This document shows positions 355 to 37,922 of a stretch of DNA of 38,028 nucleotides, in pieces. The DNA is from an uncultured Pseudomonadota bacterium (lineage in GTDB: Bacteria; SAR324; NAC60-12). The position numbers were made by a program, and so were the translations under genes. The notes below the pieces were generated by a model. It ran no database searches. It was not told the DNA's origin and saw only the letters and a list, made by a program, of their open reading frames with translations. Numbering within the stretch: position 1 is the stretch's first letter; the number at the start of each line of letters is the position of its first letter. The stretch is from positions 1 to 38,028 of the forward strand of contig CAJWCD010000015.1 in the NCBI GenBank assembly GCA_913020725.1. The letters are read 5' to 3'.

Positions 355-1581
355 ATGCCAAAAATCAATCCCAAGCGTCTGCTGACCGATTTGCAGCGAC
401 TTCGCGAACATGGAGCTTGCGGTTCCGGAGTGGTCCGTCCCGCGTTCTCTGCCCAAGACATGGAAGCCCGCAACTGGCTGAAATCCCGTTACCAACAAGC
501 AGGTTTGGACACTACGATTGACGGAGTGGGCAACGTCTTTGGACGCTCAAAAAACTCCGGCCCTGCTCTGTTGATCGGCTCTCATTCGGACACCCAACCC
601 ACAGGCGGTTGGCTTGATGGAGCCTTGGGGGTGATTTACGGACTGGAAGTGGCCCGTGCGTTGTCCGAAGCTCCGGAAACGGCGGGTTTAGCGGTGGATG
701 CGGTTGCTTGGCAAGACGAGGAATCGCGCTATTACAGCTCGTTGGGAAGCCGCTCGTTTGCAGGCAAGCTCACTCCAGAACAAGAAGCGGGCGTGACCGA
801 CAAGCAGGGGTTTCCACTGTCAGATGCCATCGCAAAGGCGGGGTTGAGCCAGATTCCACGCCAGCACCTTGATCCGGATCGCTATGTCGGGTTCCTTGAA
901 GCGCACATCGAGCAAGGCCCCCACCTTGAAGAAGACGGTAAGAAACTCGGAATTGTGACCGACATCGTTGGTCTGCATGGCGCGGTGTTCAAAATCCGGG
1001 GGCAACAAAACCATGCGGGTACAACGATGATGTCCGGAAGGAAGGACGCCGCCGCTGCCCTTTATGCGTTGGCCAACGCCATCAACGAAGAATTTCCGAA
1101 AACCGCAGGCGACCGCTCCGTCTGGACGATGGGGCGGGCCGTGATCCATCCCGGTGCTGCTTCGATTATTCCCGGTTATGCCGAACTGGAATTGCAGTTC
1201 CGGGATCGTTCCAGCAGGGTGCTGGACTCTTTTGCTGAAACTGTTCAACGACTCGTTGTCGAACTCAATGCACGAGATGGCGCACAAATCGAAACAGAAC
1301 TCGCCCGTGAGAAAATCCCGCCAGCGCCAATGGACGAGGGTTTGCAGTCTCTCCTGATCCAAGCCGCCGAAAAAAACGCAGCGGGAAAGTGGGTAAAAAT
1401 GCCGAGCGGGGCGTTCCATGATGCTGGAGTGCTGCACGACGTAATGCCCTGCGCCATGCTCTTCATTCCTTCCATCGGCGGCGTCAGCCACGACTTTGCC
1501 GAAAACAGTCATGACGAGGACATCGTCATGGGGTGTCAGGTGCTCGCCGATGCCGCAACCTTGATCTTGCAAAACCTCTGA
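355..1581 (+). CDS. M20 family Zn-dependent amidohydrolase (allantoate amidohydrolase / N-carbamoyl-amino acid hydrolase type)
   Basis: Motifs GSHSDTQPTGGWLDGALGV, DEE, EAHIEQGP, NHAGTT, SGAFHDA, GGVSH. Likely start MPKINP at 355. Confidence 0.92.
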   Translation: MPKINPKRLLTDLQRLREHGACGSGVVRPAFSAQDMEARNWLKSRYQQAGLDTTIDGVGNVFGRSKNSGPALLIGSHSDTQPTGGWLDGALGVIYGLEVARALSEAPETAGLAVDAVAWQDEESRYYSSLGSRSFAGKLTPEQEAGVTDKQGFPLSDAIAKAGLSQIPRQHLDPDRYVGFLEAHIEQGPHLEEDGKKLGIVTDIVGLHGAVFKIRGQQNHAGTTMMSGRKDAAAALYALANAINEEFPKTAGDRSVWTMGRAVIHPGAASIIPGYAELELQFRDRSSRVLDSFAETVQRLVVELNARDGAQIETELAREKIPPAPMDEGLQSLLIQAAEKNAAGKWVKMPSGAFHDAGVLHDVMPCAMLFIPSIGGVSHDFAENSHDEDIVMGCQVLADAATLILQNL

Positions 1582-1605
1582 ACCTCAACCTGCTTGTACA
1601 CCTTC

Positions 1606-2550
1606 ATGGTCACTCCCAAAGACATCGAAGCCGCACATTTACGTATTGCCCCCCACCTCCATCAAACTCCAGTCCTCACCAGTCGTAGCCTCAATCAACT
1701 CGCCAATGCCGAATTGTATTTCAAGTGCGAGAACTTCCAGCGGGCGGGATCGTTCAAGTTTCGCGGGGCCACCAACACCCTGCGGCAGTTGGACAACGCA
1801 GCCTTGACAAAGGGGGTCGCCACCACCTCTTCCGGAAACCACGGGGCCGCCCTCACACTGGCCGCGTCCCTGCAAAATGCCCATGTCACCGTGGTCATGC
1901 CCCACAACACTCCGGCGGTGAAGGTCGAGAATGTGAAACGCTACGGCGGTGAAATCGTCTTTTGCGAGCCAACCCACGAATCCCGGGAAGGCACGCTCTC
2001 CCAACTGGTGGAACGGAGCGGGGCGACCGTGGTGCATCCCTACAACGACGAGCGCATCATTGCCGGGCAGGGCACCGCCGCGTGGGAGTTGCTGACGGCG
2101 CATCCGGATTTGGACGCCATCGTTGCTCCGGTGAGCGGGGGCGGGCTGTTGAGCGGGACTTTGCTTGCTGCCCAAGGCAAGAATCCGAAAATCCGGGTTT
2201 ACGGCGCGGAACCCTTGGAGGCGGATGACACGATTCGCTCCCTAGAGGCAGGCCGCATTGTCCCGAACCTGAGTGTGGACACCATCGCCGACGGCCTGCG
2301 GGCACAGATCGGCCCCCTCACGTTTCCCATCATCCAGCAGCACGTCACCAAGGTGCTGCCGATCACGGAAGACGAGATCATCGCCGCGATGCGCCTGCTC
2401 TGGGAGCGGCTGAAGATCATCGTGGAGCCGTCGGGCGCCGTCCCCCTCGCCGCCGTCCTCAAGCGTCCCGAAATCTTCTGCAACCAAAAAACCGGCCTCA
2501 TCCTCTCCGGAGGCAACACGGACCTCGACTCGCTGCCGTGGAGTCGGTAG
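1606..2550 (+). CDS. PLP-dependent threonine/serine dehydratase or serine racemase-like enzyme
   Basis: FKCENFQRAGSFKFRGA (PLP lysine), SSGNHG, PVSGGGLLSG, VEPSGA, LSGGN. No regulatory ACT domain. Confidence 0.92.
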   Translation: MVTPKDIEAAHLRIAPHLHQTPVLTSRSLNQLANAELYFKCENFQRAGSFKFRGATNTLRQLDNAALTKGVATTSSGNHGAALTLAASLQNAHVTVVMPHNTPAVKVENVKRYGGEIVFCEPTHESREGTLSQLVERSGATVVHPYNDERIIAGQGTAAWELLTAHPDLDAIVAPVSGGGLLSGTLLAAQGKNPKIRVYGAEPLEADDTIRSLEAGRIVPNLSVDTIADGLRAQIGPLTFPIIQQHVTKVLPITEDEIIAAMRLLWERLKIIVEPSGAVPLAAVLKRPEIFCNQKTGLILSGGNTDLDSLPWSR

Positions 2551-2725
2551 TCCCGGCCTCATGCAATCTCATCGTGGTTGGATTCACCCTCACCCACGTC
2601 CGGTCCTGCATTCTGTCCCATGCAAGTCGGGGAGGCTTCCCAATCCGCTTCGCCAAATACGACCTTTCTCCTCAACAGATTGCCAAATGATTGACCGTGA
2701 TCCGCAGCATTTGGAGGCGGCAAGG

Positions 2726-3703
2726 TCATTCTCGGTGGGGCGGTGGGGCGAGGACGCGGTTGCGACTTTTCACGGATTCGGAATAGACGCTGTAAATGCC
2801 CGCGCAAGCGATCAGGGCAATGCCACACCACGCAAACAGATCCGGCCAGTCCTGAAAGAGGAACACGCTCCAGAAGATGGAAAGGGGTAGGGCGACATAT
2901 TCGAACGGAGCCACGAGTCCGGCTTCGGCCTGTCGGTAGCCCTGACTAACGAGGTAGCCGCCGATGCCACTGAGCATCCCGGCTCCGGCCATGATCCACA
3001 AATCCTGCACAGTGGGCACCGTCCAGGCCCGGAAGAGAAAATCCACCGTGGGATTGTCCGGGTTGGCATAGCGGCCATCTCCGAAGACAAGGCCGATCCC
3101 GCCGCTGACCACGACGAAGGTGAGTTGGATGTAAAACGCCATCGTGGACGCCTTGTCCTGCTTGCCGATCAGCCGTGTCGTGATCTGCACCAAAGCGTAG
3201 GTCGTCGCAGCAGCCACAGGCAGCAGGCTCACCCACCGGAAAACCTCTGCTCCGGGCCGCAGCACCACAATCACCCCGCTCAAGCCGATAGCCACTGCCC
3301 CCCAGCGGGAAGCCGCAACCCGCTCCTTCAGCAGCAGCACCGAAAAAACCGTGATCAACAACGGTGCCACAAAGAAAATCGCCGTTGCCTCTCCCAGGGG
3401 CAAGGTGGCGAGTCCGGTGAAGAAACAGAAGTTGGCAACCACAATCCCCAAACCCCGCAGGACATGGAGCAATAAACGCCGGGTGCGCAGGTGTCCATAG
3501 CTTCCTTCCAAAGGGACAAAAATCAGCAGAGTCAGCACGAGCGCGACGCTCGCTCGCGTCAAGATGATCTGGTGCAAAGGATAGCTGCCACTGAGCCACT
3601 TGATCGCCGAATCTTGTGTCGTGAACGAGATCATTGCCCCAATGACACAACAGATGCCCAGCAAGTTGGGAGAGTTGGCAAATAAGTTTCGCAGCTTGGA
3701 CAT
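2726..3703 (-). CDS. DMT/EamA family transporter
   Basis: About 10 hydrophobic segments, LLKERV..SRW.AV.IG..GV.VVLRPG and A..VAPFEY motifs. Likely start MSKLRN at 3703. Confidence 0.9.
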   Translation of the reverse strand: MSKLRNLFANSPNLLGICCVIGAMISFTTQDSAIKWLSGSYPLHQIILTRASVALVLTLLIFVPLEGSYGHLRTRRLLLHVLRGLGIVVANFCFFTGLATLPLGEATAIFFVAPLLITVFSVLLLKERVAASRWGAVAIGLSGVIVVLRPGAEVFRWVSLLPVAAATTYALVQITTRLIGKQDKASTMAFYIQLTFVVVSGGIGLVFGDGRYANPDNPTVDFLFRAWTVPTVQDLWIMAGAGMLSGIGGYLVSQGYRQAEAGLVAPFEYVALPLSIFWSVFLFQDWPDLFAWCGIALIACAGIYSVYSESVKSRNRVLAPPPHRE

Positions 3704-3833
3704 GAACGATTTGGAAACAAAGCAATGGGAGCATGGTGCCGGACTGATCAAAACCCCTTGCAGCATCCTTGCAGAAAACCGTTGGCTTTGAAACCTTGTG
3801 TCGCTCGATGGACCCCGGAACAAGCAGAGATGC

Positions 3834-3861
3834 TTGCGAATTGTTAGCACTCTGCTATAGT
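3834..3861 (+). promoter_or_regulatory. Putative sigma70 promoter of clpB (TTGCGA-16 bp-TATAGT, extended -10 TGn)
   Basis: -35-like TTGCGA at 3834-3839 and TGC-TATAGT at 3853-3861, lying inside the CIRCE spacer. Confidence 0.6.
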
Positions 3862-3870
3862 GAGTGCTAA
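3844..3870 (+). promoter_or_regulatory. CIRCE element (HrcA operator)
   Basis: Exact consensus TTAGCACTC-N9(TGCTATAGT)-GAGTGCTAA, 29 bp upstream of the clpB ATG. Confidence 0.95.
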
Positions 3871-3899
3871 AATTCAATCATGATCCCAAGCGAGGTTTT

Positions 3900-6524
3900 A
3901 TGAATTCCCAGAAACTCACGCAGAAATCGGTGGCCGCGCTCGAAGCGGCCCACGCTGAGGTGGTGCGGCGCAAGCATTCGGAACTCACCACGCTGCATTT
4001 GCTCCACGCCTTGGTCACACAAGAACAGGGATTGGTGCCGCGCCTGCTCGACAAACTGGATGTGGAGGTCCACAACTTCAGCCGCAATTTGGAAAATGAA
4101 CTGGAACGACTACCGACGTTTTCCGGAGCAAATCTTGGACAGGTCTCAGCTTCCGGAGATTTCAACCACGCGCTGGTGGCCGCAGAGGACGAGGCCAAGC
4201 GGCTCGACGATGAGTATGTCAGCGTGGAGCATCTGCTGCTGGCTTTGCTCAAGCAGCGCAAATCTCCTGCCGAGCGGCTACTCACGGAGGCCGGGGTTTC
4301 GCGGAAAGACCTGCTTGCCACACTCAAGGAACTTCGTGGTGGGCAGCGGGTGACAAATCAGAATCCGGAGGAGACTTACGAGGCACTGGAGAAGTACGGC
4401 CTCGATCTCACGGAGCGTGCGCGTTCCGGAAAGCTCGATCCAGTGATTGGGCGCGACGACGAAATCCGCCGCGTGATCCAAGTCCTCTCCCGCCGCACCA
4501 AGAACAATCCTGTCCTCATCGGCGAACCCGGAGTTGGCAAGACCGCCATTGCAGAGGGCTTGGCCCAACGCATCGCCCGCCACGATGTTCCGGACAGCCT
4601 CAAGGACAAGCGGCTCGTCTCGCTGGACATGGGAGCACTGATTGCAGGAGCAAAGTTTCGGGGAGAGTTCGAGGAACGCCTTAAGGCGGTGCTGAAGGAG
4701 GTGCTGGATGCTGACGGACAGATTGTGCTCTTCATTGACGAACTGCACACCGTCGTCGGCGCAGGCAAGGTCGAAGGCGCGATGGATGCTGGCAACCTAC
4801 TCAAACCGATGCTGGCGCGTGGCGAATTGCATTGCATCGGCGCGACCACGCTAGACGAGTACCGCAAGCACATCGAGAAAGACCCTGCGCTGGAACGGCG
4901 TTTCCAGCAAGTGTTGGTCAATCAACCCACGGTGGAGGACACCATCTCTATCCTGCGCGGCCTCAAGGAACGCTACGAAATCCACCACGGCGTGCGCATC
5001 AAGGACAACGCCCTCATCGCCGCCGCGACGCTTTCCAACCGCTACATCACCGACCGTTTTCTGCCGGACAAGGCGATTGATCTGATGGACGAAGCCGCCG
5101 CCCGTCTGCGTGTGGAGATCAATTCCATGCCTGCCGAAATGGACGAGATTTCGCGGAAAATCCTGCAACTCGAAATTGAACAGGAAGCCCTCAAAAAGGA
5201 AACCGACTCTGCCTCCAAGGAGCGGTTGGAGAAGCTCGGCAAGGCACTTGCGGATTTTCGGGAACAGTTCAATGTGATGAAGGCACAATGGGAGCAGGAG
5301 AAATCCGGACTCTACGCCGTTGCACAGCTTAAGCAGCAGCTTGACGAAACCAACACGAAGATCGAGCAGGCTCAGCGCGACTACAATCTGGAGGAAGCCG
5401 CACGACTGGAGTACGGAACCCTGCCAGAGTTGCGCAAGCAGCTTGAGGCCGTGCAGGCGCACGAAAACGGGCAAGATTCCGGGAACCGCCTGCTCAAAGA
5501 GGAGGTGGACGCGGAGGACATCAGCGAGATCGTGGCACATTGGACGGGCATTCCGGTGTCCAAGATGCTGGAGGGTGAAAACGAAAAACTGCTACGGCTT
5601 CCGGAACACCTGCACCAGCGCGTGATCGGACAGGATGAGGCAATCCAACTGGTGTCCGACGCGGTGCAGCGTTCACGATCCGGGATCAACGACCCCAACC
5701 GCCCGCTCGGCAGTTTCATCTTCCTCGGCCCCACTGGAGTCGGAAAGACCGAACTGGCCCGTGCTCTTGCCGAATTTCTCTTTGACGACGAGCAGGCGAT
5801 GGTGCGGCTCGACATGTCGGAATACATGGAGAAACACGCGGTCTCGCGCCTGATCGGAGCGCCTCCGGGCTATGTCGGCTACGATGAGGGCGGGCAACTC
5901 ACCGAGGCGGTCCGGCGACGCCCCTACAGCGTCATCCTCTTTGACGAGATTGAGAAGGCGCATCCGGATGTTTTCAACACGCTGCTCCAGATTCTTGACG
6001 ACGGCAGGCTCACGGATTCGCAGGGCCGCACTGTGAATTTCCGCAACACGCTGGTGTTGATGACCTCCAACCTCGGCAGTCAGCGCCTCACGGAAATGGC
6101 GGGGCAGGTCGAGGACACCGAGGATGAGGATGCAGAACTAATCCGCAACGCCGAGCAGAAGTTTGCGGTGCAGCAGGAACTCCGGCAACACTTCCGTCCG
6201 GAATTCCTCAACCGCATTGACGACATCGTGGTCTTTCACCCACTGCGCAAGCGGCATCTGCGCGACATCGTGCACATCCAACTTCAGCGGCTGCAAAACC
6301 GACTCGACGAACGCAAAATCACACTAGCGTTGGACAACCGTGCTGTGGATTTTCTTATTGATGTGGGCTACGAACCCACCTACGGCGCACGACCTCTCAA
6401 GCGCACCATCCAGAAGGAACTCGAAACCCCCTTGGCCCGCGAACTGCTCAAGGGCACTCTCAAGGACGGCACCGTGCGAGTTTCCGTGGAGAACAGCGAG
6501 TTGCAGTTTGCTCCAGTGGGTTAG
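3900..6524 (+). CDS. clpB: ATP-dependent chaperone ClpB
   Basis: Clp N-domain, two AAA+ modules ([16 protein letters not shown]), coiled-coil middle domain, GAPPGYVGY. Start MNSQKLT at 3900. Confidence 0.98.
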
Positions 6525-6560
6525 GAAATCGACTCTTTGAGAGCTGAATTTTCCAACCCG

Positions 6561-8168
6561 TCACATCCGGAAGACTCCGTATTTGGTGGGGGAAATCGGA
6601 GCATTGAGCGCGGCGGCCAGCCCCAAGCCTAGCACGGTGCGGGTTTGGGCGGGGTCAATCACGCCGTCATCCCAAAGTCGTGCGGTTGCGTAGTACGGAT
6701 GGCCCTGCACCTCGTACTGCTCCCGGATCGGTTGTTTGAAAGCTTCCTCATCCGCTGCGCTCCACGATTGTCCAGAGGCTTCCAGATTGTCGCGTTTCAC
6801 GGTTGCCAACACAGCGGCGGCTTGCTCTCCCCCCATCACCGAAATCCTTGCATTAGGCCACATCCAGAGGAAGCGCGGCGCATAGGCACGCCCGCACATC
6901 CCGTAGTTGCCTGCACCATAGGAACCTCCAAGGATCACGGTGAGTTTTGGCACCTGCACACACGAAACTGCCGTCACCAACTTCGCCCCGTCCTTGGCGA
7001 TTCCGCCTCGTTCGTACTGCTTGCCGACCATGAATCCAGTGATATTCTGGAGGAAAATCAGGGGGACTCTGCGCTGTCCACAAAGCTCCACGAAGTGGGC
7101 ACCCTTGAGTGAGGATTCGGAAAAGAGGATGCCGTTGTTGGCAACAATGCCCACGGGGATGCCGTGGATGCGGGCGAAGGTGGTGATCAGCGTGGTGCCG
7201 AAAAGCGCCTTGAATTCCTGAAATTCGGAACCGTCCACAAGGCGAGCGATGACCTCGCGGATGTCGAAGGATTTCCGCAAATCCTTGGGCAGCACCCCGT
7301 AAAGCTCATCCGGGGAATACTTAGGCGGAAGTGCATCCGCCAACTCCGGAAACGACGATTGCTGTGGGGGCAAACCGGCGATCACGTCCCGCACAATGGC
7401 GAGCGCGTGGGCATCGTTTTCGGCAAGATGATCCGCGACTCCGGACTGGCGGGCATGGACGTCACCCCCGCCGAGTGCTTCCGGAGTGACCACCTCCCCT
7501 GTTGCCGCCTTGACGAGTGGAGGGCCACCGAGAAAGATCGTCCCCTGGTTGCGGACGATCACCGTTTCGTCGCTCATCGCCGGAACATACGCACCGCCTG
7601 CTGTGCAGGAACCCATCACCACCGCAAGTTGTGGAATGCCCTCGGCAGACATCGTGGCTTGGTTGTAGAAAATGCGGCCAAAATGCTCGCGATCCGGAAA
7701 CACCTCATCCCAAAGCGGCAGAAATGCCCCTCCGGAATCAACGAGGTAGATGCACGGCAAGCGATTTTCGCGGGCGATCTCCTGAGCGCGCAGGTGTTTT
7801 TTGACAGTGATCGGATAGTAGGTGCCGCCCTTGACGGTGGCATCGTTGGCAACGATCATCACTAGCCGTCCGGAAACCCGTCCGATTCCCGTGATGACTC
7901 CGGCGGACGGAACTTCGCTGTCGTAAAGCCCCCACGCCGCCAGCGGTGCGACTTCCAGAAACGGGCTTCCGGGGTCGAGCAAGCACCTCACGCGTTCCCG
8001 TGGTAGCAGTTTTCCCCGGGATTCGTGTCGCTGCCGGGAGCGTTCCGAGCCACCCTTGCCGACTTCTTGCATTCGACCCCGCAGTTCCTCGGCAAGTTGC
8101 TGATGATGGCGGGAGTTTGCCAGAAATTCGGCGGAGTTGGGATCAAGGCAACTTTCAAAAACAGGCAT
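6561..8168 (-). CDS. liuB: 3-methylcrotonyl-CoA carboxylase beta (carboxyltransferase) subunit
   Basis: [52 protein letters not shown]-terminal YGVFRM. Start MPVFES at 8168. Confidence 0.93.
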
Positions 8169-13937: not shown

Positions 13938-16181
13938 ATGCCACTTGACGAACCCACCCCGGAACAGATTCGAGACGAGCAGGTTTTTCTGGAAATGGGC
14001 CTGAATGCATCTGAATACAAAGAAGTCGTGCACCGTTTGGGACGCTTACCAAACCTCACGGAGGCGGGTATTTTCGGAGTGATGTGGTCGGAACACTGCT
14101 CCTACAAGAACTCGAAACCCCTGCTCGGACGCTACCCCACGGAGGGTCCGCGCATCATGCAAGGTCCGGGAGAGGGCGCGGGTGTGGTGGACCTCGGCGA
14201 GGGCTGGGCGGCGGTCTTCAAGGTCGAAAGCCACAACCACCCCTCTGCGATTGAGCCATATCAAGGCGCGGCGACGGGCGTGGGCGGCATCCTCCGGGAC
14301 ATTTTCTCGATGGGCGCGCGTCCAGTGGCAATCCTCAACTCCCTGCGTTTCGGCCCGCTTCAGGACGATCCCCGTGCCCCCCGGACTCGTTACCTGTTCA
14401 AGGAGGTGGTCGCAGGCATTGCAGGTTACGGCAACTGCATCGGGGTGCCCACCGTTGGCGGCGAAATTGATTTTGATCCGGCCTATTCCGGAAACCCGTT
14501 GGTGAACGCGATGGGGGTCGGCTTGGTGCGTCACGACCGACTCCAGCACGGACGCGCCGGGGGTATCGGCAACGCTGTGGTGTACGTCGGTAGCGCCACC
14601 GGACGGGACGGCATCCACGGGGCGACATTCGCCTCCGAGGAACTGAGTGCGGCATCCGAGGCCAAGCGTCCAGCAGTGCAGGTGGGCGATCCGTTCATGG
14701 GCAAACTGCTACTGGAAGCGTGTCTGGAGTGCTACGATTCCGGCGCCTTGCTGGCGGTGCAGGACATGGGCGCGGCGGGCCTCACCTGTTCCAGCACCGA
14801 GATGGCGGACAAGGGCGGCGTGGGCATGGTGCTGGACCTCGACCGCGTGCCTCAACGCGCCGAGAACATGTCGGCCTACGAGATCATGCTTTCCGAATCA
14901 CAGGAGCGCATGCTCTTTGTCGCGCATCCCGGACGCGAGGGTGAACTGCTCGTCATCTGCAAAAAATGGGGCGTGGAAGCGGCGGTGATCGGCGAGGTGA
15001 TCGCAGAACCTGTGTTGCGCTTGCTGCAAAAAAGCAACTGCGTGGCCGAACTGCCGTTGGAGCAGGTCTGCGGCAATCCCCCGGTTTATCACCGCGAATC
15101 CGTAAAACCGGACGCGCTCACGAGGCAGCAAGCAGAGCCGGAGGTGAGTTGGCCGGAACCAGAAAACTTGGGAGCGGAATTGCTGTCGCTGCTGTCCACA
15201 CCCAACGCCGGATCGAAGCAGTGGGTGCATCGGCAGTACGACTCGATGGTGCGAACCAGCACACGGGTGCGCCCCGGATCAGATGCCGCCGTGGTTGCGG
15301 TGGAGGGTTCCGACATGAGCCTCGTTCTCAGCATTGATGGCAACGCCCGCTATGTGCAACTCGATCCCCGTATGGGTGGGAGAATCGCCGTCGCCGAAGC
15401 TGCCCGCAACGTCGTCTGCGCCGGGGGACAACCCTTAGCGATCACGAACGGCCTCAACTTCGGCAGTCCGGAAAAACCGGAAGTGTTCTGGCATCTCGAG
15501 CAAGCCGTCACGGGCATCGCCGAGGCCTGCCGTCACCTCGACCTGCCCGTCACTGGAGGCAACGTCAGTCTCTACAACGAAACCGAGGGCACTCCGATTT
15601 TACCGACTCCAATAGTCGGCGTGATCGGGCTGGTGGAGTGTCCGGAACACGTCACCACGCAGTTCTTCAAGCAAGCTGGAGACATCCTTCTCCTCGTCGG
15701 CGAAACCCGTCCGGAGTTCGGCGGTAGCCTCTACCAGCACCACAAGGCGGGGCGGCTTTCCGGAAAAGCTCCGCAACTTGATTTGCTACAGGAAGCCAAG
15801 GTGCAGCAGGCGCTCTTGGAGACAATCCGGAAGGGGCTCGTGTCTTCCGCGCACGATCTCTCGCACGGAGGACTGGCCCTCGCACTTGTGACCAGTTGCA
15901 CCGAGGACTTGGGCGTGGAAGTGGATTGGCACCCGAACTTGCGCCCCGATCTCGCCTTGTTCAGTGAAAGTCAGTCGCGTGTACTGCTCAGTGCTGAGTC
16001 AGGGCAAGTTTCACAAATTGTGGGGATTCTCAAACGCTCCGGACTGGCTTGCAAAACCATCGGCACGGTTCAGTCCGGAATTTTCCGGATGCGCTTTCAG
16101 GGAGAAAATCGGCTTGAGGGCACACTCACAGAAATCCGCACGGCGTGGGCTGGAGCATTGGAGCGCCAATTGAAAGGATGA
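13938..16181 (+). CDS. purL: Phosphoribosylformylglycinamidine synthase subunit PurL (small type)
   Basis: [54 protein letters not shown]. About 747 aa, no glutaminase domain. Confidence 0.97.
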
Positions 16182-16252
16182 GGGGGCGTACTCATTCATC
16201 AGGTCTTGAGATGGCAATTTCTGACATTAGTGATCCCTGAAAAGTACGCAAA

Positions 16253-17551
16253 CTAAGTGACACTCAACTGCTCACTTGAGTATTTGGCATAAATTTTTTC
16301 TTCAACGATTACTTTTATTCGTTTAAGAGCCTGATGGATTTCAGTAAAAGTTGTATAGAGGGGGGTGATTCCTAATCGGATATTATCTGGTGCACGGAAA
16401 TCAGGGATTACTTGGACAGCAGGCGGAGGAGACTCTATCAACGCACGGCAAATTCGGTAGCTTTCCAAATGACGAAGAGACACATGCGAACCTCGGATCT
16501 TTGCCTCTCGAGGTGTCCCCAACGTAAATCCAAGCGGGGTTAGCCATTCATCCGCTAAATAAATTAGATATTCTGTTTGGTTAAGACTCTTCTTTCGCAA
16601 ACGTGTCATCCCCGCATCCAAAATAATGTCTAACGCCGGTTCGACAGCTTTCATCGAAAGCATCGGCGGTGTCCCGATTCGGAATCGAGAGATATCATCC
16701 GCAGGTGTAAAATCAAGCTCAAAATCGAAAGGTTTTTTGGAGGCAAACCATCCCCACATCGGTTGCATTAATTGCGCTTGTAAATCTCGTCGCACATAAA
16801 GAAAGGCTGGTGCACCAGGTCCGCCATTCAGGTATTTATATGTGCATCCAATTGCTAAATCCACATTAGTTCCATTTAAGTCAATCGGTACAGCCCCAGC
16901 GGAGTGGCATAAATCCCAAAGCATGAGTGCACCCGCCCGATGCACTTGCTTGGTTACAGCCTCCATATCGTACATGAAAGCACTTTTGAAGGCGACATGT
17001 GTTAAGCTGACCAAGGCCGTATCGCTGTCTATTGCGGTTTCAATTGCTTCGGGCGCAATGGTGATGCCGTCTACCGAAGGAAGCAAATCTAGGTGGTGAG
17101 TGTTTCCCAGTAAATTGATCACGCCTTGAAGAATATATAAATCTGAGGGGAAATTGAGAGTATCGCTGATAATTTTGCTGCGTCCATTTTTTGCTTTTAG
17201 CGCTGCGACTGCTAACTTGAAGAGATTGATGGACGTTGCTTCGGTGATAATTATTTCATCCGCGTGCGCCCCGACCAATTTTGCTATTTTTGCGCCTAAC
17301 TCAGTGGGAGAGTTTACCCAGCCATCATTCCAAATTCTGATGAGTCGATCTCCCCACTCATTTTCAATGGCATTTTTCATAAAATCTACGGTGCGTCGGG
17401 GCAGGCGTCCGAGAGAGTTGCCGTCCAAATAAATCAGATTGGTGTCGGCAATCACAAACTCATTTCGAAAAGCAGCTAAATCATCTTTTGCATCTAGTTC
17501 GTTTGCAAAATTAATATCCGTATTCATAAACTCCATAATTTGATAGTCCAT
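16253..17551 (-). CDS. kynU: Kynureninase
   Basis: IYLDGNSLG, NFPSDLY, WDLCHSAG, GCTYKYLNGGPG, GWF, RGSHVS, DFRAPD.IRLG. Start may be at 17527. Confidence 0.96.
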   Translation of the reverse strand: MDYQIMEFMNTDINFANELDAKDDLAAFRNEFVIADTNLIYLDGNSLGRLPRRTVDFMKNAIENEWGDRLIRIWNDGWVNSPTELGAKIAKLVGAHADEIIITEATSINLFKLAVAALKAKNGRSKIISDTLNFPSDLYILQGVINLLGNTHHLDLLPSVDGITIAPEAIETAIDSDTALVSLTHVAFKSAFMYDMEAVTKQVHRAGALMLWDLCHSAGAVPIDLNGTNVDLAIGCTYKYLNGGPGAPAFLYVRRDLQAQLMQPMWGWFASKKPFDFELDFTPADDISRFRIGTPPMLSMKAVEPALDIILDAGMTRLRKKSLNQTEYLIYLADEWLTPLGFTLGTPREAKIRGSHVSLRHLESYRICRALIESPPPAVQVIPDFRAPDNIRLGITPLYTTFTEIHQALKRIKVIVEEKIYAKYSSEQLSVT

Positions 17552-17755
17552 CTCTGTTGTAGTGTTCCTTTGAATTTCTTGAAAAATAACTGAAACCCAA
17601 GTAAACGTATCATAAAATCGAACCTATTCTAAAATCATAAAACGTGACAGGGTGAATTTTACTGCGGACAGGCACCAACCTCCAGAGGGGGCTATCGAAA
17701 TTCAAACTAGAGTCTTGAATGGTGTTGCCATTAATCTGCATAAATAGCCTGATCA

Positions 17756-17986
17756 CTACATATTACTCATGATTGGGTTCCTACCCCGATCAGTTGTTGC
17801 GCCTGCATCACACTTCTTGCAATTTAGTTTATGCCCAAGTTTGGATTTTCTTCCCTCATCAGGGATAACCCAAGTATGATTAACCCAAGGTGGGTTATGA
17901 CGAACATGCTGATAATGATCACAGGCTAACTCAGCCACCCAATGATGCTCTTCGTCTTGATGGTATCCAACTATACTTTGATCCAT
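17756..17986 (-). CDS. DUF3565-like small Cys/His protein
   Basis: IVGYHQDEEHHWVAELAC.H.QHVRHNPPW....W....GR...LG..LNCKKCD matches the DUF3565 pattern as I recall it. Confidence 0.85.
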   Translation of the reverse strand: MDQSIVGYHQDEEHHWVAELACDHYQHVRHNPPWVNHTWVIPDEGRKSKLGHKLNCKKCDAGATTDRGRNPIMSNM

Positions 17987-18332
17987 AGTAACTAACCTCG
18001 CAAATCACTGGATGTCAAAATGGAAAGGAGTCTGCGTGTCGGCTGGCTTTCGGGGAGACTGTAGAGAAAGCAGGAGGAATGAGCAAGGAGAAAGACCGTC
18101 ACTGACTGGAGCAAGTGCAGAAGTGAATGCGGCTCTGGCACGACTTCGTGTGTGCCGAGCGGCGATTGTGAGAGGGGCTTGTAAGTAGGCACGGAGAAGA
18201 TCGAGCGGTTTTGCACCTCGTATTGGAGCCTCCTTGCTTTCGTTGGAGAGACGGGCCACGATGATACCGCATCTCCCCTCACCGACAGGAGGAGTTGCAC
18301 ATACGAATTGAATCTGTGGCTTAAAGCAAACC

Positions 18333-19682
18333 ATGTGCGGAATTTTTGGCATCTTCAACCATCCCAAGGCAGCGGAGCTGACGTATCTCGGCATCCACGC
18401 CCTCCAACACCGCGGACAGGAGAGCGCAGGCATCTGCTCCAGCGATGGTGAGCAGCTGCATGTCCACCGCAGCACTGGGTTGGTAACGGAAGCATTTTCG
18501 CAGGCCCAGCAGCAGCAGCTTCCCGGAAACATGGCCATCGGGCACGTCCGCTACACCACCGCCGGGGCATCGGACAACCTCAACGCCCAGCCGCTTGTGT
18601 TCCGCTACAGTGGCGGTCAGGTTGCGGTGGCGCACAACGGGAATCTCGTCAACGCGCAGCGGCTCCGGACGCAACTGGAGCGGCAGGGTTCGATTTTCCA
18701 GACCACCACCGACACCGAGGTGATCCCACACCTCATCGCCCGTGCCGGACCTCCCATTCTCGATGCAGTTCAAGATGCTTTGCGCGTGATCGAAGGCGCA
18801 TTCGCGCTGCTTTTCCTGACCGAGTCCGGACTGATCGCCGCGCAGGATTCTCGCGGATTCCGGCCCCTCTCGCTCGGCAAGCTGGGCGAGGGTTGGGTGG
18901 TTGCTTCAGAAACCTGCGCCTTGGACATCGTGGGGGCGGAGTTCGTGCGTGACCTCCAGCCCGGCGAGTTGTTGACCATCTCCGCTGATGGTCTGAAAGC
19001 GACCGCTTGCCTGGCCCCGAATCCACGGGCGATTTGCTCCTTCGAGTATATTTACTTCGCGCGTCCGGATTCGGAGATCAACGGGGTCAGTGTCCATGCC
19101 GCCCGCAAGGCATTCGGGCGGAGGATTTTCGAGGAATCCCCCGTCGAGGCGGATATCGTGGTTGGAGTGCCTGATTCCGGAATCGCCTCGGCAATCGGTT
19201 ATGCAGAAGCGTCCGGACTGCCTTACGAGTTGGGGATGATGAAGAACCGCTATGTCGGGCGAACCTTCATCCAGCCCAGTCAGGAATTGCGACAGCAGGG
19301 GGTGCGCATGAAACTCAGTCCGGTGCGTAGCGCCATCACCGGAAAGCGGCTCGTGTTGGTGGATGATTCGATTGTGCGCGGCACCACTAGCGGGCGCATT
19401 GTGCGTATGCTCAAAGACGCAGGAGCCAAGGAAATCCACCTGCGCATCACCTCCCCGCCGATCACGCATTCCTGCCTTTACGGAATTGACACCGCCCGCC
19501 GCAAGGAACTCATCGCCGCCGAGTATGAGGTGTCTGCGATTCAAGAAAAAATCGGTGCTGATTCACTTTACTTTCTCTCTGCCGAGGGCATGGTGGAGGC
19601 CACCGGACGCAACGATTCCTCACCGAATCGCGGACACTGCCTCGCCTGCTTCAACGGTGATTATCCGACTCCCACTTCATGA
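18333..19682 (+). CDS. purF: Amidophosphoribosyltransferase
   Basis: N-terminal MCG nucleophile, LQHRGQE, GHVRY, VDDSIVRGTT, Fe-S cysteines (CSFEY, CLYGID, CLAC). Confidence 0.98.
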   Translation: MCGIFGIFNHPKAAELTYLGIHALQHRGQESAGICSSDGEQLHVHRSTGLVTEAFSQAQQQQLPGNMAIGHVRYTTAGASDNLNAQPLVFRYSGGQVAVAHNGNLVNAQRLRTQLERQGSIFQTTTDTEVIPHLIARAGPPILDAVQDALRVIEGAFALLFLTESGLIAAQDSRGFRPLSLGKLGEGWVVASETCALDIVGAEFVRDLQPGELLTISADGLKATACLAPNPRAICSFEYIYFARPDSEINGVSVHAARKAFGRRIFEESPVEADIVVGVPDSGIASAIGYAEASGLPYELGMMKNRYVGRTFIQPSQELRQQGVRMKLSPVRSAITGKRLVLVDDSIVRGTTSGRIVRMLKDAGAKEIHLRITSPPITHSCLYGIDTARRKELIAAEYEVSAIQEKIGADSLYFLSAEGMVEATGRNDSSPNRGHCLACFNGDYPTPTS

Positions 19683-30810: not shown

Positions 30811-31594
30811 CCTGCTCCTGTAAGCCCTGTGCTGCGTGTGCTGCTGCTGCTGCGTAATGCGTCCCGGAAGAGGCATAGAGAATGCTACGGGAGGCGTTGA
30901 TCAAGCAAGGCAATCCCGAGCCATCCTCGGCATCCCGCAAGGTTTCTTCCAAACTTCCCCCCTGCGCTCCCACTCCCGGCACCAGAAACGGCATCGGCCC
31001 AGACAATTCCCGGATTTCCCGGACTTGCTCGGAGCGAGTCGCCCCGACCACCAAGCCGGCGTTGCCGTGGTCGTTCCACTGCCGCACCTTGCGGACCACG
31101 TCTTGAAACAAGTTCGGAAGCTGAAAGTCGGAGGCTCCGGGGTTAGAGGTCAAACCCAACACAAAAACCAACCGATCTCGGTGTGCAAGAAAGGGCCGCA
31201 CGGCATCCTCGCCCTGATACGGTGTCACCGTGACGGCGTCGCAACCGTAAATCTCGAAAAGCGCGTGAGCGTAGCGCTCTGCCGTGTGCCCAACGTCCCC
31301 ACGTTTAGCGTCCCCGATCACGGGAGTGTGGGCCCGGATTTCCTTGATCAATGCTTGGAGCAGGCTCATCCCTTCCGGACCAAGCGCCTCGAAAAATGCG
31401 AAGTTGGGTTTGAAGGCAATGGCGTATTCGCGGGTGGCCTCGACGATTTCTCGAAGAAAATCCCCGATTCCTGCGACTGATTTCGGAACCGATTCCGGAA
31501 GCCGTTCCGGATCGGGATCAAGACCGACACAAAGCAGAGAGGAGCGTGCTTCCGCGAGTTGCTTGAGTCGTTCAAGGCAGGTGGGGAAAGTCAT
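30773..31594 (-). CDS. pyrF: Orotidine-5'-phosphate decarboxylase (type 2 subfamily)
   Basis: LCVGLDP, FKPNFAFFE, DAKRGDVG.T, LTSNPG, GLVVGAT, LVPGVGAQGG, NASRSILYA. Confidence 0.96.
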   Translation of the reverse strand: MTFPTCLERLKQLAEARSSLLCVGLDPDPERLPESVPKSVAGIGDFLREIVEATREYAIAFKPNFAFFEALGPEGMSLLQALIKEIRAHTPVIGDAKRGDVGHTAERYAHALFEIYGCDAVTVTPYQGEDAVRPFLAHRDRLVFVLGLTSNPGASDFQLPNLFQDVVRKVRQWNDHGNAGLVVGATRSEQVREIRELSGPMPFLVPGVGAQGGSLEETLRDAEDGSGLPCLINASRSILYASSGTHYAAAAAHAAQGLQEQVSRARNRGSASV

Positions 31595-32249: not shown

Positions 32250-32269
32250 GAATCTCCTTAGCTGACAGG

Positions 32270-32956: not shown

Positions 32957-32978
32957 ATTCCTCACCCCAAAGGTTTTA

Positions 32979-33974: not shown

Positions 33975-34011
33975 CGCTCTCCTGTTTCCTCACCTGACCT
34001 GAAGACAGCCC

Positions 34012-35640
34012 TTGCTCGCGCGCTTCCGCATTCCCCTGGTGCTACTAGCTCACTTCACCGTGTTCTGGGGAGTGAACCAAGGCATCAACCCCCATCCGGA
34101 CATGGTGGACCACTGGGAGTGGTCGCGGACACTCTACCTGTCATACTACGAGCATCCACCGATGGTCGCAGTGATCTTCCGGGGGATCACGTTGCTGTTT
34201 GGCTCTGCTGAGTGGGCGTTGGAGCTTGGAGCGCAGTTGGTCAATCTTAGCATCATCGCACTCGCGGCCATGGTGGCCCAGCAAGCCTTTGGAGGAACAA
34301 GCGGGTGGTGGACACTCCTGTTGCTCTGTGGAACTCCGTACTTCACGCTGGGTAGCATCTTCCTGCACATCACGCAGGGGTTGGTTCTGAGCTGGCTGAT
34401 CGGGCTTTACGGCTATCTGCGCTACCAGAAATCCGGCAACCCACGTTGGTGGTTGCTGATCGGAGTTGCTGGAGGTTTGGGGGCGCTCTCGAAGTATGTG
34501 ATGATCCTCTTTTACTTGGGCATTGGGGTACACCTGCTTGTTTACAAGGATCAACGCCGTGGGTTGCTCAACCCTTGGCTCTATGCAGCGGGGTTGCTTT
34601 CGTTGCTAATCTTCGCTCCAGTGCTGGTTTGGAATGCGCAACATGATTGGGTCTCCTTCCGTTGGCAGTTGGGGCGTGGCACGTCCGGAGCCGAGTTTGG
34701 GCTCAATACTCTTTTCTTCACGGTAGGGCACATCCTCCTGTTTTCACCAGTGCTACTGCCCGCAGGAATCCTGAGCTGCTGGAAGCTGAGGGAGCGATTG
34801 CGCGATAGCCGCACTCCGGAAGCAGTCATTTTTGTGCTGGGGGCTACCCCCCTCGGATTCTTCACGCTAGCCAGCCTGAAAGGCAGCATCGCTGATCCGC
34901 ATTGGGCGAACCTGAGCTACTTGGGTCTTGCGATGATCACGGCAAGGGCCATAGACTCCCTTAAGCTGAAGCGTCCCGCGTGGATCATCACTGCGGGATT
35001 GTTCTTCAACCTACTGGTCGCCTCGGCAGTTCTCATCCACGTCCACGCCCCCTTTCACGATATCATCCCCTACGATTTGGAGAACTACCCCTACCTTCAG
35101 GAGCAGGGAGTCCCAGAATCTGTGCTGGAGAAGCTCAAGGCTGACGACGGGCTTTATTTTGGCACGCAGACCTACCGGAAGGTGCTGGAAGGGCAACTCG
35201 ACAAAAGCGAGCGGGATCAGTACGAGCAGGTCGTGCTACGCACCGCAATGGAAGTCTCCGGGGATCGCTTCACAAGGGTCTTGGGGTGGCAGGAAACCCG
35301 CAAGCAGATCGAGAGGATTCTTCGTGAACACAACCTTGGACTTCCGGAGTATGTCGTCTCCCGCGAGTATCAGTTGAGCAGCGCGGTCGCCTACTATCTC
35401 CACCAACAGCCGTGGCCCCACAGTATCGAAAAACCCGAGCGCAACCAGTGGAGTCCAGAGAAGGCGGTGCGGGCGGGGCCGTCCATGTTCGTTTGTGAAC
35501 TCTACGAGTGTGTCCGCGCCACTCGGGCGTTCAACAAGCGATTTGGACTTCCCCTGAAGCGGTTGGGTGAGGTGATTGTGTATCGCGGCGGAAGGCTTGT
35601 CCGCGACCTGCTTCTCTACCGGATCGTTACCGGGGAGTGA
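34012..35640 (+). CDS. ArnT/PMT-like GT-C glycosyltransferase (family 39/83)
   Basis: HWEWSR.L..SYYEHPPMVA, G.G.LSKY, P.LVWNAQHDW.SF.WQ, multiple TMs, C-terminal periplasmic domain. Confidence 0.88.
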   Translation: MLARFRIPLVLLAHFTVFWGVNQGINPHPDMVDHWEWSRTLYLSYYEHPPMVAVIFRGITLLFGSAEWALELGAQLVNLSIIALAAMVAQQAFGGTSGWWTLLLLCGTPYFTLGSIFLHITQGLVLSWLIGLYGYLRYQKSGNPRWWLLIGVAGGLGALSKYVMILFYLGIGVHLLVYKDQRRGLLNPWLYAAGLLSLLIFAPVLVWNAQHDWVSFRWQLGRGTSGAEFGLNTLFFTVGHILLFSPVLLPAGILSCWKLRERLRDSRTPEAVIFVLGATPLGFFTLASLKGSIADPHWANLSYLGLAMITARAIDSLKLKRPAWIITAGLFFNLLVASAVLIHVHAPFHDIIPYDLENYPYLQEQGVPESVLEKLKADDGLYFGTQTYRKVLEGQLDKSERDQYEQVVLRTAMEVSGDRFTRVLGWQETRKQIERILREHNLGLPEYVVSREYQLSSAVAYYLHQQPWPHSIEKPERNQWSPEKAVRAGPSMFVCELYECVRATRAFNKRFGLPLKRLGEVIVYRGGRLVRDLLLYRIVTGE

Positions 35641-35703
35641 GCCAAGGGTTCACCGCGTGACCGTCACGGCCCCCTCAACACCAGTTGTCTTCCTGATCGC
35701 TGG

Positions 35704-36312
35704 TTAGAAGGACAGGCGATAGGCGATTCCCACCCCGTGCTTCAGGGCAAGGGGCTGGACGTTCCAAGAGTTTTGGTGGTTGGCCGTGGGACGCGGTGCT
35801 GAGGGATTCCAGAGACTGCGGGTGCCCAGCATCATCCCAACAAGTGCCCCAAATACGCTGCCGGATCCGATGGTCCGGAACTGATCTCTGGTGGAGCTTT
35901 CTTGCGTGATGAACGCGAACCATGTGCCCAGCATCAATCCTGTGCCAGCCCCATAGCCGATGTTGGCGGTGGCTTGCTGCCGCTCGACCACGATCAATTC
36001 GCGTTGGGCCAACTCGCTGAGTTGGAGCTGGCTTTCGGTATCTAAGCCAAACTCATCATCATCCATGAAACCATCTCCAGCAGGAGCGTCGAACGAGTCA
36101 TCCAAGCCTCCATCCAAACCGGGATCCGCAAGAAAGCCATCCTCTGAGAAGCCAGAGTCGTTTGAAAACCCGTCATCATCCTGCATGAATTCATCCATGT
36201 CGCCGTAGTCGTCCTCGAATCCTTGGGCCAAGGTGGTGGGAACGCTGAAAGCAAAACTCCAGACGACCGAGAAAATGATAAGCGCGAGAAGCGGAAGGAT
36301 ACGAAGTTGCAT
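35704..36312 (-). CDS. Hypothetical exported protein: acidic D/G/F-rich region, Gly-zipper hairpin, C-terminal Phe strand
   Basis: Signal peptide (..TTLA|Q), low-complexity acidic tract, GYGAGTGLMLG, GSGSVFGALVGMMLG, ends GIAYRLSF. Confidence 0.75.
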   Translation of the reverse strand: MQLRILPLLALIIFSVVWSFAFSVPTTLAQGFEDDYGDMDEFMQDDDGFSNDSGFSEDGFLADPGLDGGLDDSFDAPAGDGFMDDDEFGLDTESQLQLSELAQRELIVVERQQATANIGYGAGTGLMLGTWFAFITQESSTRDQFRTIGSGSVFGALVGMMLGTRSLWNPSAPRPTANHQNSWNVQPLALKHGVGIAYRLSF

Positions 36313-36420
36313 GACCTTACAGTGTGGCTAATGAGTCCGTCGAAAAGGGGAATGCAATTCCCATTCACAGCGGCGAATAATTCTAAAACTTCCTGAAGTT
36401 TCTCACAGGACAGCGAAAAG

Positions 36421-36855
36421 ATGAAGCCGGTTCAGAGCAAATCAGGTGGAGCCGAAAAACTGAAACACGCCCGTCGCCTTCTGGTGGGGTGCGTTGTGTC
36501 GCTGTTGATGATGACCACTCCCCTGCGTGCCCAAGAGAGTGGGCCGATGCTGATGAAGCAGGAGCTTGGATACAGCCTTGGGGGGGGAGTTTTTGGAGCG
36601 GGATTTGGTGTGGTCTTGTGGTTCATGGACCCTTTAAACCCAGACAGAGAAATGAAGGATTCCGTGAAAGACGGATTTGTCACCGGAGTGCTCCTCGGCA
36701 GTTTGTTCGGTTTCTACCTCCTTCAGAACGCAGCACAGTTTCCCATGCAAGGGGACTCACTGCCAGCCCTCCCCTTGGGATTTGAGCGGAAACAGAATCC
36801 CAACCTCAACGCCTACCGGGAAATTCAAATCCCGTTGTTCTCCATGAAGTTCTGA
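36421..36855 (+). CDS. Hypothetical exported Gly-zipper protein with C-terminal Phe
   Basis: Signal (..PLRA|Q), GGGVFGAGFG, GFVTGVLLGSLFG, ends IPLFSMKF. Confidence 0.75.
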   Translation: MKPVQSKSGGAEKLKHARRLLVGCVVSLLMMTTPLRAQESGPMLMKQELGYSLGGGVFGAGFGVVLWFMDPLNPDREMKDSVKDGFVTGVLLGSLFGFYLLQNAAQFPMQGDSLPALPLGFERKQNPNLNAYREIQIPLFSMKF

Positions 36856-36857
36856 TT

Positions 36858-37301
36858 ATGCGCATGCGAATTTCGGCCATCGTTGTTGCTTTGGTGCTGG
36901 CATGGAGCGCGTCCGGAGTTCAAGCTCAGGAGGCTGCTTTGGGAGCGCCAACGGGAAGTCAACCCGTGATGCAATCGGTGTTTTGGAACACCGTGTGGGG
37001 CTCTGCGTGGGGTGCGCTCATCGGCACGAGCAGTTCCTTCTATAGCTATAGCGAGGCCAGACGAGAACCTGTGATTTCCGGAACCTCCATCGGTGCTGTC
37101 ATGGGCTATGGCATGGGAATTTATTTGGTTATCAACGGAGTCACGTTTGACAAACGCTTCCTTTTAAACCTCCCTGCTCCGCAGTTTGGCCCTAGCCCAC
37201 AAGCCCAACTCAGCGAGGGCGATCCCTTCCAGATCCAAGCTTCTGCCACCCCAGTGGACTGGAGCGCATGGCAGGTTTCCTTATTCAAAATCCGCTTCTG
37301 A
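36858..37301 (+). CDS. Hypothetical exported Gly-zipper protein with C-terminal Phe
   Basis: Signal (..GVQA|Q), WGSAWGALIG, GTSIGAVMGYGMG, ends VSLFKIRF. Confidence 0.75.
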   Translation: MRMRISAIVVALVLAWSASGVQAQEAALGAPTGSQPVMQSVFWNTVWGSAWGALIGTSSSFYSYSEARREPVISGTSIGAVMGYGMGIYLVINGVTFDKRFLLNLPAPQFGPSPQAQLSEGDPFQIQASATPVDWSAWQVSLFKIRF

Positions 37302-37316
37302 ACCCCTCCCCGGCAC

Positions 37317-37922
37317 ATGTGGTTCCGGGACCATGAACTCTTCGCGGGCTTTCTCCGCGAAAACCGCTGGGAACTGCTCACCTTGCTGGTGTTGGCTGGG
37401 TTGCTCTCCGGAGGCGCAGTTTACTACACCCAACAATCCAATCTGAGTCCGGTTATCCGCGAAGAACGCGGGGCCCTCAAACTTGAGCAGGTGGTGATCG
37501 ATGACTATCGGCTTGACCTGAAACGCTGGCGGATGCGAGGGGAGCGGGCCATCGTGTTGGAGACTTCTCGGCGGATGCGCATTGAACAGGTGCGTCTCGA
37601 GGTGTTCGTCCCGTACTCTGCCGCAGTGAATGACCCCAAGGTGAATCTGGACATTTCAGCAAATGAAGCACTTGCCGAGTGGCAAGACCAGCGGATCACG
37701 CTGCTCGGTGATGTGAAAATTCGGCATGACACAGGCTTGGAAATCCATACCGAAGTCGCCGTTTATGATGTCCAAAAAGAATTTCTCACGATTCCAAAAC
37801 CCCTCACCATAAGGCAAGCAGGACATGTGGTCACGGGAGACTCGCTCACCTACGATCTCCGGAGAGGAAAGTTGAAACTTGTGGCTCCGAAAGCTCTTTT
37901 CGTGCACGGATTCAACTCGTAA
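37317..37922 (+). CDS. lptC: LPS export periplasmic protein LptC-like
   Basis: N-terminal TM anchor followed by beta-jellyroll pattern (W.M.GE.A, I.L.GDV.I....G.EI.TE...YD, V.G..L.YDL). Confidence 0.75.
   Translation: MWFRDHELFAGFLRENRWELLTLLVLAGLLSGGAVYYTQQSNLSPVIREERGALKLEQVVIDDYRLDLKRWRMRGERAIVLETSRRMRIEQVRLEVFVPYSAAVNDPKVNLDISANEALAEWQDQRITLLGDVKIRHDTGLEIHTEVAVYDVQKEFLTIPKPLTIRQAGHVVTGDSLTYDLRRGKLKLVAPKALFVHGFNS

Follow-up and report, generated by a model that had tools for sequence, protein, structure and literature searches.

The window, that is, the whole stretch of 38,028 nucleotides analysed here (GenBank contig CAJWCD010000015.1), is contig C15 of the SAR324 genome G000 (3.45 Mb, 56.7% guanine plus cytosine (GC), 204 contigs, 93.3% complete), whose DNA was matched by RNA runs from seawater or marine metagenomes; the element studied is the palindromic hexamer TCCGGA. 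The window contains 86 copies (2.3/kb, span 424..37863), compared with a mean of 14.5 (standard deviation 3.7, maximum 23) in 100 dinucleotide shuffles; the initial annotation had estimated about 80, and all 10 coordinates that it cited were correct. The copies start at positions 424, 672, 873, 1033, 1831, 2103, 2506, 4122, 4152, 4364, 4425, 4589, 5304, 5600, 5963, 6197, 6566, 7345, 7440, 7480, 7693, 7731, 7869, 8219, 8477, 8645, 8807, 9022, 9218, 10983, 11458, 11815, 12150, 12165, 12342, 12447, 13012, 14487, 15467, 15641, 15710, 15759, 15826, 16038, 16074, 16084, 18664, 18825, 19064, 19176, 19212, 19853, 20455, 20542, 20655, 20728, 21240, 21430, 22042, 24263, 25320, 25738, 25766, 26376, 27153, 28051, 28066, 28568, 29507, 30305, 31374, 31494, 31506, 32325, 32776, 32835, 33418, 34095, 34684, 34815, 35343, 35874, 36912, 37077, 37407 and 37858. 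They populate all three reading frames and genes on both strands, as had been described. No family except one tRNA was detected by an Rfam scan of the window.

The longest stretch of the window free of TCCGGA (16090..18663) contains a 43%-GC islet with the kynureninase gene kynU (16253-17551, minus strand), inserted between purL and purF. The islet had been presented as foreign DNA in which the hexamer is missing; the absence is real (none at 16090-18663), but the argument drawn from it is weak, because about 1.2 sites are expected in the 1.8-kb islet at its GC and zero is not significant. Genome-wide, 1-kb tiles of less than 46% GC carried 0.65 TCCGGA/kb, with an observed/expected ratio (O/E) of 4.2 versus 7-8 in the other tiles.

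Enrichment of TCCGGA in G000 and its relatives

TCCGGA was the most frequent hexamer of G000 (7,675 copies; 2.2/kb; 2,227 per Mb), with an O/E of 7.3 relative to base composition. Under a second-order Markov model, a control that the initial annotation had proposed, the enrichment held with an O/E of 3.37, at the top of the 64 palindromic hexamers, most others of which were depleted. It is qualified by the maximal-order model, under which the O/E was 1.00; the half-sites TCCGG/CCGGA had an O/E of 1.56, and the hexamer excess is carried multiplicatively by these half-sites and is not all-or-none.

Frames were counted on 3,081 genes called with our own gene caller and compared with five per-gene synonymous shuffles. 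Frame TCC-GGA held 2,135 sites versus 566-613 (3.6-fold), frame NTC-CGG-ANN 1,140 versus 590-610 (1.9-fold), and frame NNT-CCG-GAN 3,815 versus 870-889 (4.3-fold). Coding DNA contained 92% of the sites, and TCCGGA occupied 7,090 of the 21,424 coding positions at which the amino acids permit it; non-coding DNA contained 575 copies, against a base-composition expectation of 114, and the hexamer ranked first there (O/E 2.57). Enrichment was thus present in all three frames and between genes, not in one frame, when codons were preserved. Independence of frame and codon was accordingly observed, as was dispersal as the most over-represented palindrome; both are marks of HIP1-type highly iterated palindromes (HIPs). 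The ribosomal-protein cluster was not depleted (34 TCCGGA versus 36.3 expected), and no dense or in-phase cluster hinting at an origin was found in G000. Among other words, CCWGG was strongly depleted (O/E 0.18-0.21), as were CCGCGG, CGGCCG, GTGCAC, CTCGAG and CTGCAG; the CCWGG depletion, limited to the genus of G000 (g1; 0.18-0.36 versus 0.83-0.96 in genomes G013, G019 and G020), was treated as unrelated to the TCCGGA enrichment.

Comparison across related genomes, likewise proposed by the initial annotation, revealed lineage-specific enrichment. The density per kb was 1.4-2.2 in g1, 2.2-2.9 in g2, 0.57-2.1 in g12, 0.66-1.1 in g5 and 0.13-0.24 in g3, with g8, g9 and g10 likewise counted as TCCGGA-poor; it was below 0.6 in 18/18 genomes of the sister family, and TCCGGA was sparse in G013 (400 kb). 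In a background panel of 80 unrelated loci obtained by a PurL search, the median was 0.22/kb and the maximum 0.85/kb.

Helical spacing of neighbouring sites and its reversal

The most informative feature was a helical-phase rule, absent from the initial annotation, which had only listed spacing periodicity as a point to be checked. Pair distances of TCCGGA in G000 peaked at 9-10, 27, 36-38, 48 and 57-60 bp, and only 0-2 pairs (about 17 expected per distance) were counted at each of 13, 20, 22, 23, 31, 32, 43, 52 and 53 bp. The best period was 10.58 bp, the phase lay close to pi, and the signal had faded at about 110 bp; among 449 frequent hexamers this half-turn signal was the strongest (z -12.4). 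When only amino-acid-permissive positions were considered, in-phase pairs at distances of 14-56 bp numbered 45 versus 183 expected, and half-turn pairs 229 versus 218 expected; the lowest in-phase count in 200 simulations was not below 155, and the amplitude of permissive-pair availability was 0.05 versus 0.39 for occupancy. Whole-turn distances are thus shunned, with a period of 10.6 bp, after codon control. A model with no benefit from a second site gave an O/E of about 0.16 (hand calculation), with which the observed 0.07-0.25 is compatible, these minima having been chosen after the fact.

In the window, the 14 pair distances of up to 66 bp were 10, 12, 15, 15, 28, 30, 36, 36, 38, 40, 46, 49, 59 and 61 bp. 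A triplet at the end of purL (16038..16089) has distances of 36, 46 and 10 bp, all on genome-wide spacing peaks, and the pair at 7693..7736 lies 38 bp, or about 3.5 turns, apart; further pairs at favoured distances start at 19176/19212 (36 bp), 25738/25766 (28 bp), 15710/15759 (49 bp) and 32776/32835 (59 bp). An exception is the pair at 31494..31511, whose sites lie 12 bp apart (one of four such pairs in the genome, 17 expected).

The phase was shared by CCCGGA strongly (amplitude -0.38, z -10.6) and by ACCGGA and TCTGGA weakly, most other one-letter variants giving no phase signal; the specificity is thus graded, with CCCGGA as the strongest near-match, and near-matches take each genome's own phase. 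The signal was restricted to the CCGGA core (amplitude 0.6-1.3 versus 0.02-0.07 for A-tracts), and the periodicity of CG and CC/GG in G000 had an amplitude below 0.01. With TCCGGA masked, AAA/TTT tracts of G000 and G019 showed a weak half-turn autocorrelation of 10.4-10.5 bp (amplitude 0.02-0.04), peaking near 36, 47, 57, 68, 78, 88 and 99 bp; a similar A-tract phase was hinted at in 50 kb of E. coli, and it may be nothing special.

The sign of the rule was opposite in g1 and g12. Pairs at 30-33 bp (in phase) and 35-38 bp (half turn) numbered 11/87, 7/65 and 2/30 in the three g1 whole genomes, and those at 20-23 and 25-28 bp numbered 2/23 and 3/42 in the two congeners of G000. In 14 pooled g12 genomes, 1,071 in-phase pairs were counted versus 239 half-turn pairs, the in-phase count being the larger in 14/14 genomes (p<0.001 in 11/14); the two-turn comparison was consistent for both genera, and g5 had a weaker in-phase lean (85/40). 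Kin genomes are not independent in these cross-genus counts. In G019 (794 kb of 3.3 Mb) the amplitude was +1.31 (standard error 0.10) with a period of 10.4, peaks at 20-21, 30-33, 41-43 and 52-54 bp and low counts at 6-18 bp; with codon control, 84 in-phase pairs were found versus 29 expected. G020 (400 kb) had a general gap below about 28 bp, followed by weak in-phase peaks. As a control, GATC of E. coli gave 450 pairs at 30-33 bp versus 470 at 36-39 bp, without phase bias. In a tree of a single ParE-like gene (23 genomes), g1 and g2 were joined (92/93) inside an unresolved clade with g3, g5 and g12 (99/96). The in-phase preference may therefore be the older state, from which avoidance would have arisen in g1 and in part of g2, while g3 would have lost the enrichment; since the tree rests on one gene and contains a polytomy, the order of these changes is not fixed.

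Conservation, mutation and methylation

G000 was aligned with its relative G002 (218 kb, 88.7% identity). Within the motif, GGA was conserved at 0.87 versus 0.70-0.73 elsewhere and CCG at 0.91 versus 0.78, both changing about half as often, and TCC at 0.89 versus 0.86, equal to TCC preceding other Gly codons; in raw conservation TCCGGA ranked 26th of 1,257 hexamers. Orthologous sites were thus conserved beyond control codons, as in HIP1-type palindromes. The C>T difference at the inner C of the motif was 0.044 per C versus 0.070 at other CG, so that this C is not hypermutable. Near-match words of TCCGGA were raised in G000; no one-step precursor word was specifically depleted there, TCTGGA itself being raised (O/E 1.81).

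Changes were polarised with G001 as outgroup (71 kb), which gave 15 apparent losses of TCCGGA to TCTGGA and one gain; 13 events bore on compensatory turnover of in-phase partners. Deamination of 5-methylcytosine (5mC) was rejected as the cause of the 15:1 ratio, because strong-to-weak changes prevail genome-wide (2,004:799 and 1,566:868) and at other CG sites (501:152). The motif-permitting dipeptides Ser-Gly, Pro-Glu and Pro-Asp were used at 1.48, 1.66 and 1.42, versus 0.98, 1.07 and 1.05 in the 80 unrelated loci, and were raised in G000, G019 and G020, the panel being crude (Pro-Glu reaches 1.39 in 50 kb of E. coli). Together these facts agree with selection or with a drive of equivalent effect, and they do not tell chromosomal selection apart from uptake drive.

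The initial annotation had linked the palindrome to a TCCGGA/CCGG methyltransferase and to methylation-directed repair, and neither link has so far been supported. PF00145 (5mC methylase) was not matched in G000 and its two congeners (g1 0/3; G000 93% complete), and its presence in 14/41 genomes overall did not track TCCGGA density. One orphan gene (PF01555; L001:514-2253 on contig C49 of G000), whose N4/N6-type methylase-like product begins with a long charged segment, is present in 36/41 genomes of the order, TCCGGA-poor ones included, and does not track density; no cognate methylase of the HIP1 kind was found. Vsr was not matched in G000; with no 5mC methylase and no depletion of the precursor TCTGGA, the signs of a Dcm/Vsr system were absent there. 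5mC is poorly detected by single-molecule real-time sequencing. In the available part of the PMC8919816 supplement, a metagenome-assembled genome (MAG) encoding a g12-type ribbon-helix-helix (RHH) protein (P0058; 538x subread coverage, 28.5% complete) is given with 0 methylated motifs, as are three Deltaproteobacteria MAGs; their link to the TCCGGA-rich genomes is an inference.

Like HIP1 (GCGATCGC) and the alternate cyanobacterial HIPs, TCCGGA is a dispersed palindrome in thousands of copies, more frequent than low-order models predict, more conserved than codon effects explain, and variable between lineages. In the available parts of PMC5861425, PMC4390886 and PMC13756078, HIP density is put, after Elhai, at about 500-2,500 per Mb and HIP1 periodicity at 18-94 kb, in bins of at least 25 bp; the word 'helical' is absent from PMC5861425 and 'spacing' from PMC4390886. 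Because spacings were so binned, the base-pair pair test has apparently not yet been run on HIP1. Unlike HIP1, for which these partial texts give an O/E of 15-300, TCCGGA is a hexamer with graded half-sites and an O/E of 3.4, and no cognate methylase was found for it. Of the HIP-like system suggested in the initial annotation there remains a lineage-specific, frame-independent iterated palindrome outside cyanobacteria, without the methylase link; on its sequence features TCCGGA appears HIP-like in abundance and dispersal, fails the methylase feature and was not filed as HIP1. Literature searches, outside which most subscription papers lay, yielded nothing on TCCGGA as a highly iterated palindrome, nothing on methylated motifs or a methyltransferase in SAR324 with TCCGGA, and no phased genomic palindrome besides that of SeqA. 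For three decades it has been an open question what highly iterated palindromes do; TCCGGA provides an independent case outside cyanobacteria, apparently without a methylase link and with a spacing rule at base-pair scale that naturally switches sign between related genera.

Possible readers of TCCGGA

The phase data likely reflect a putative protein that binds the chromosome and has altered its pairing geometry over evolutionary time. On balance we lean, at slightly better than even chances, towards a symmetric architectural DNA-binding protein for which selection keeps the TCCGGA sites, these excluding one another in g1 and cooperating in g12; of the functions that the initial annotation had offered, chromosome organisation fits best, while methylation-directed repair is so far not supported, Vsr being unmatched in G000 and the inner C not hypermutable. 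A two-fold symmetric protein would prefer TCCGGA and read it by additive half-site contacts, the multiplying half-site effects being as expected from additive binding energies, and selection would maintain roughly one copy in every 450 bp, as far as the encoded proteins permit. In g1, two same-face sites within about 55 bp would not both be usable, through occlusion or opposed bending, so that the second would decay towards background. In g12, and more weakly in g5, same-face sites at least two turns apart would be occupied cooperatively, as if the duplex were wrapped or bridged, and in-phase pairs would therefore accumulate; the sign change would stem from altered oligomerisation. If true, the g1 binder would occupy pairs spaced 21, 32, 42 and 53 bp with negative cooperativity and the g12 binder with positive cooperativity, and the coding sequences of an abundant marine lineage would both record the geometry of a chromosome protein and be shaped by it.

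A more specific form of this reading, which we hold only tentatively, is a methylation-free chromatin code, in which a small protein, possibly of the RHH type, would read thousands of genic TCCGGA and a change in its geometry would have rewritten their spacing. Oligomeric geometry would decide whether neighbouring sites share or avoid a helix face, the difference between g1, which has an RHH C-terminal helix, and g12, which lacks it, would be the candidate change, and the writing of TCCGGA would be strong enough to shift dipeptide usage. The lead is a CopG-like protein of 90 amino acids (G000:C1:54785-55057; single-copy, contig C1 of 92.6 kb), picked out by eye from the G000 proteins that have conserved counterparts in 1.2 Mb of sequence from two g12 genomes. 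It carries a GGxRxGAGRK arm and a CopG-like ribbon-helix-helix, shares 81% identity over 57 residues with g12, has a C-terminal helix except in g12, and is encoded in 34/38 family genomes (one full copy in nearly all) and 0/18 of the sister family. The sequence of its strand is [VI]KKILLGLP in the four TCCGGA-rich genera, whereas VRKI stands there in those g3 loci that were read, and VQKI in g7 and g8; this match is a lead only, because it was noticed post hoc, follows phylogeny and the protein occurs in poor genera. As the reader of TCCGGA this protein is an unlikely candidate. Metatranscriptome contigs covered its gene in 2/4 runs among the pieces listed, contig depth being unable to rank genes.

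Face-dependent reading would resemble that by SeqA and RHH nucleoid proteins. Like Dam/SeqA GATC of E. coli, TCCGGA is a dispersed palindrome, and SeqA prefers same-face pairs according to the available part of PMC2691817; the GATC control above indicates that SeqA leaves no comparable genomic signature at those distances. For RHH chromosome proteins, CdbA of Myxococcus xanthus is a precedent: in the available text of PMC7156744, it is a nucleoid protein forming a small RHH tetramer, with about 7,000 monomers per cell, which bends DNA and binds specifically, through a motif, at more than 500 sites. What CdbA recognises is a direct repeat with copies one turn apart and not a palindrome like TCCGGA, and that text gives no hyper-abundant phased motif. 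Spacing at helical period is also under selection in the genome-wide 10-11-bp periodicity of dinucleotides and A-tracts treated in the available part of PMC7537859, from which 'CCGG' and 'hexamer' are absent; here a single hexamer far exceeds A-tracts and takes opposite signs between genera.

Several observations weigh against a dedicated architectural protein. The binder is postulated from the motif patterns and no protein is assigned to it; raised motif conservation is also expected under biased repair or uptake drive. The first trough at 12-13 bp and the favoured 9-10 bp in G000 are not predicted by a plain same-face rule, and the A-tract half-turn signal in both genera implies that selection on DNA shape may contribute. 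Pairs at 30-33/35-38 bp were mixed in g2 (31/81, 70/62 and 128/83), and g11, of only moderate density, had 2/15 in the three-turn comparison and 11/8 in the two-turn one. SeqA homologues were found in 0/5 genomes at E<=0.1, and no histone was found in G000 by Pfam or by a motif search. Three HU/IHF genes and MutL are present in G000, the HU/IHF family being weakly or differently specific. Other candidates would have been missed by the choice of the RHH protein by eye; it also occurs in 7/7 TCCGGA-poor g3 and 2/2 g8 genomes, no TCCGGA lies within 70 bp upstream of its gene, and its PDB matches were weak (CopG E 0.012; no fold match at E<=0.001), with CdbA among the weak fold matches (E 1.4).

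Uptake-sequence drive, in which a DNA-uptake receptor would prefer TCCGGA, transformation and recombination would enrich it and the phase rule would follow if the receptor were oligomeric, is unlikely, and retains some probability because ComEC (PF03772) is encoded in 33/39 family genomes, G000 included. It would agree with the lower O/E of low-GC tiles and with the shifted dipeptide usage, such shifts also being seen with Neisseria/Haemophilus uptake sequences. ComEC was, however, equally frequent in TCCGGA-poor genera (6/7 in g3, 2/2 in g8), a simple motif search turned up only one type IV pilin-like N-terminus, and it is not obvious why taking up kilobase fragments should bar a second site 21-53 bp away. 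Against this drive it also counts that known uptake sequences are longer and not palindromic. In its favour, HIP1 itself is linked to transformation in the available part of PMC13756078. Intrinsic DNA shape, that is, a bendable TCCGGA step acted on by non-specific nucleoid proteins, selected for net curvature in g12 and against it in g1, we regard as rather improbable. A/T content had a weak half-turn offset from the sites in G019 (z -3.9), whereas in G000 it was weakly in phase with them (z 3.0); the A-tract signal occurs in both genomes, and selected dinucleotide periodicity is widespread (PMC7537859, available part); yet the phase signal is confined to the CCGGA core, and selection against curvature would not make TCCGGA the commonest hexamer in g1.

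A HIP1-like methylation/repair ratchet (the Elhai model or a Vsr-type one), by which a methylase would mark the site and biased repair would turn near-matches into it, the sites themselves having no function, is marginally more doubtful. The order-wide conservation of the orphan C49 methylase-like gene, the presence of MutL in a genome only 93% complete and the raised near-match words, resembling a decay halo, could speak for it. They are opposed by the distribution of PF00145 and of the C49 gene, the latter also in TCCGGA-poor genera, by the missing Vsr, the undepleted precursors, the low C>T difference at the inner C and the RHH-encoding MAG without methylated motifs, and repair hardly explains a phase rule with changing sign. 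An artefact of codon or amino-acid usage (Ser-Gly, Pro-Glu/Asp, alpha-helix periodicity) might be suspected from the 92% of coding sites, the commonness of the three dipeptides and the maximal-order O/E; it was refuted by the synonymous shuffles, the permissive-position control and the 200 simulations, is further contradicted by the enrichment in non-coding DNA and by the opposite phase of genera of one family, and has a negligible probability.

The RHH gene is preceded at L206:3090-3110, and in orthologues, by a conserved TATCGGCA...TCTTGA element; read on the other strand, it resembles what we take to be a sigma-28 promoter, pointing away from the RHH gene. At the same locus, L206:3151-3833 was covered by RNA contigs in 4/4 runs. 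A serA-like gene (L206:4050-5591) appears to be in pieces in G000, its two downstream parts matching adjacent stretches of G019 L115; one RNA contig differs by a single base at 4676, and 4182-4799 is left out of another.

In-phase TCCGGA triplets of viral contigs were dropped as evidence, being mostly tandem-repeat-like arrays selected by the search pattern. Locus L276 (IMGVR_UViG_3300014208_000003, a 158-kb contig), picked via the triplet pattern, contains 48 dispersed, non-tandem copies of TCCGGA within 10 kb of 31% GC, which exceeds the base-composition expectation about 70-fold. Viral contigs L251, L284, L315, L263 and L300 share AT-rich 21-bp TCCGGA triplets, which presumably resemble replication-origin iterons.

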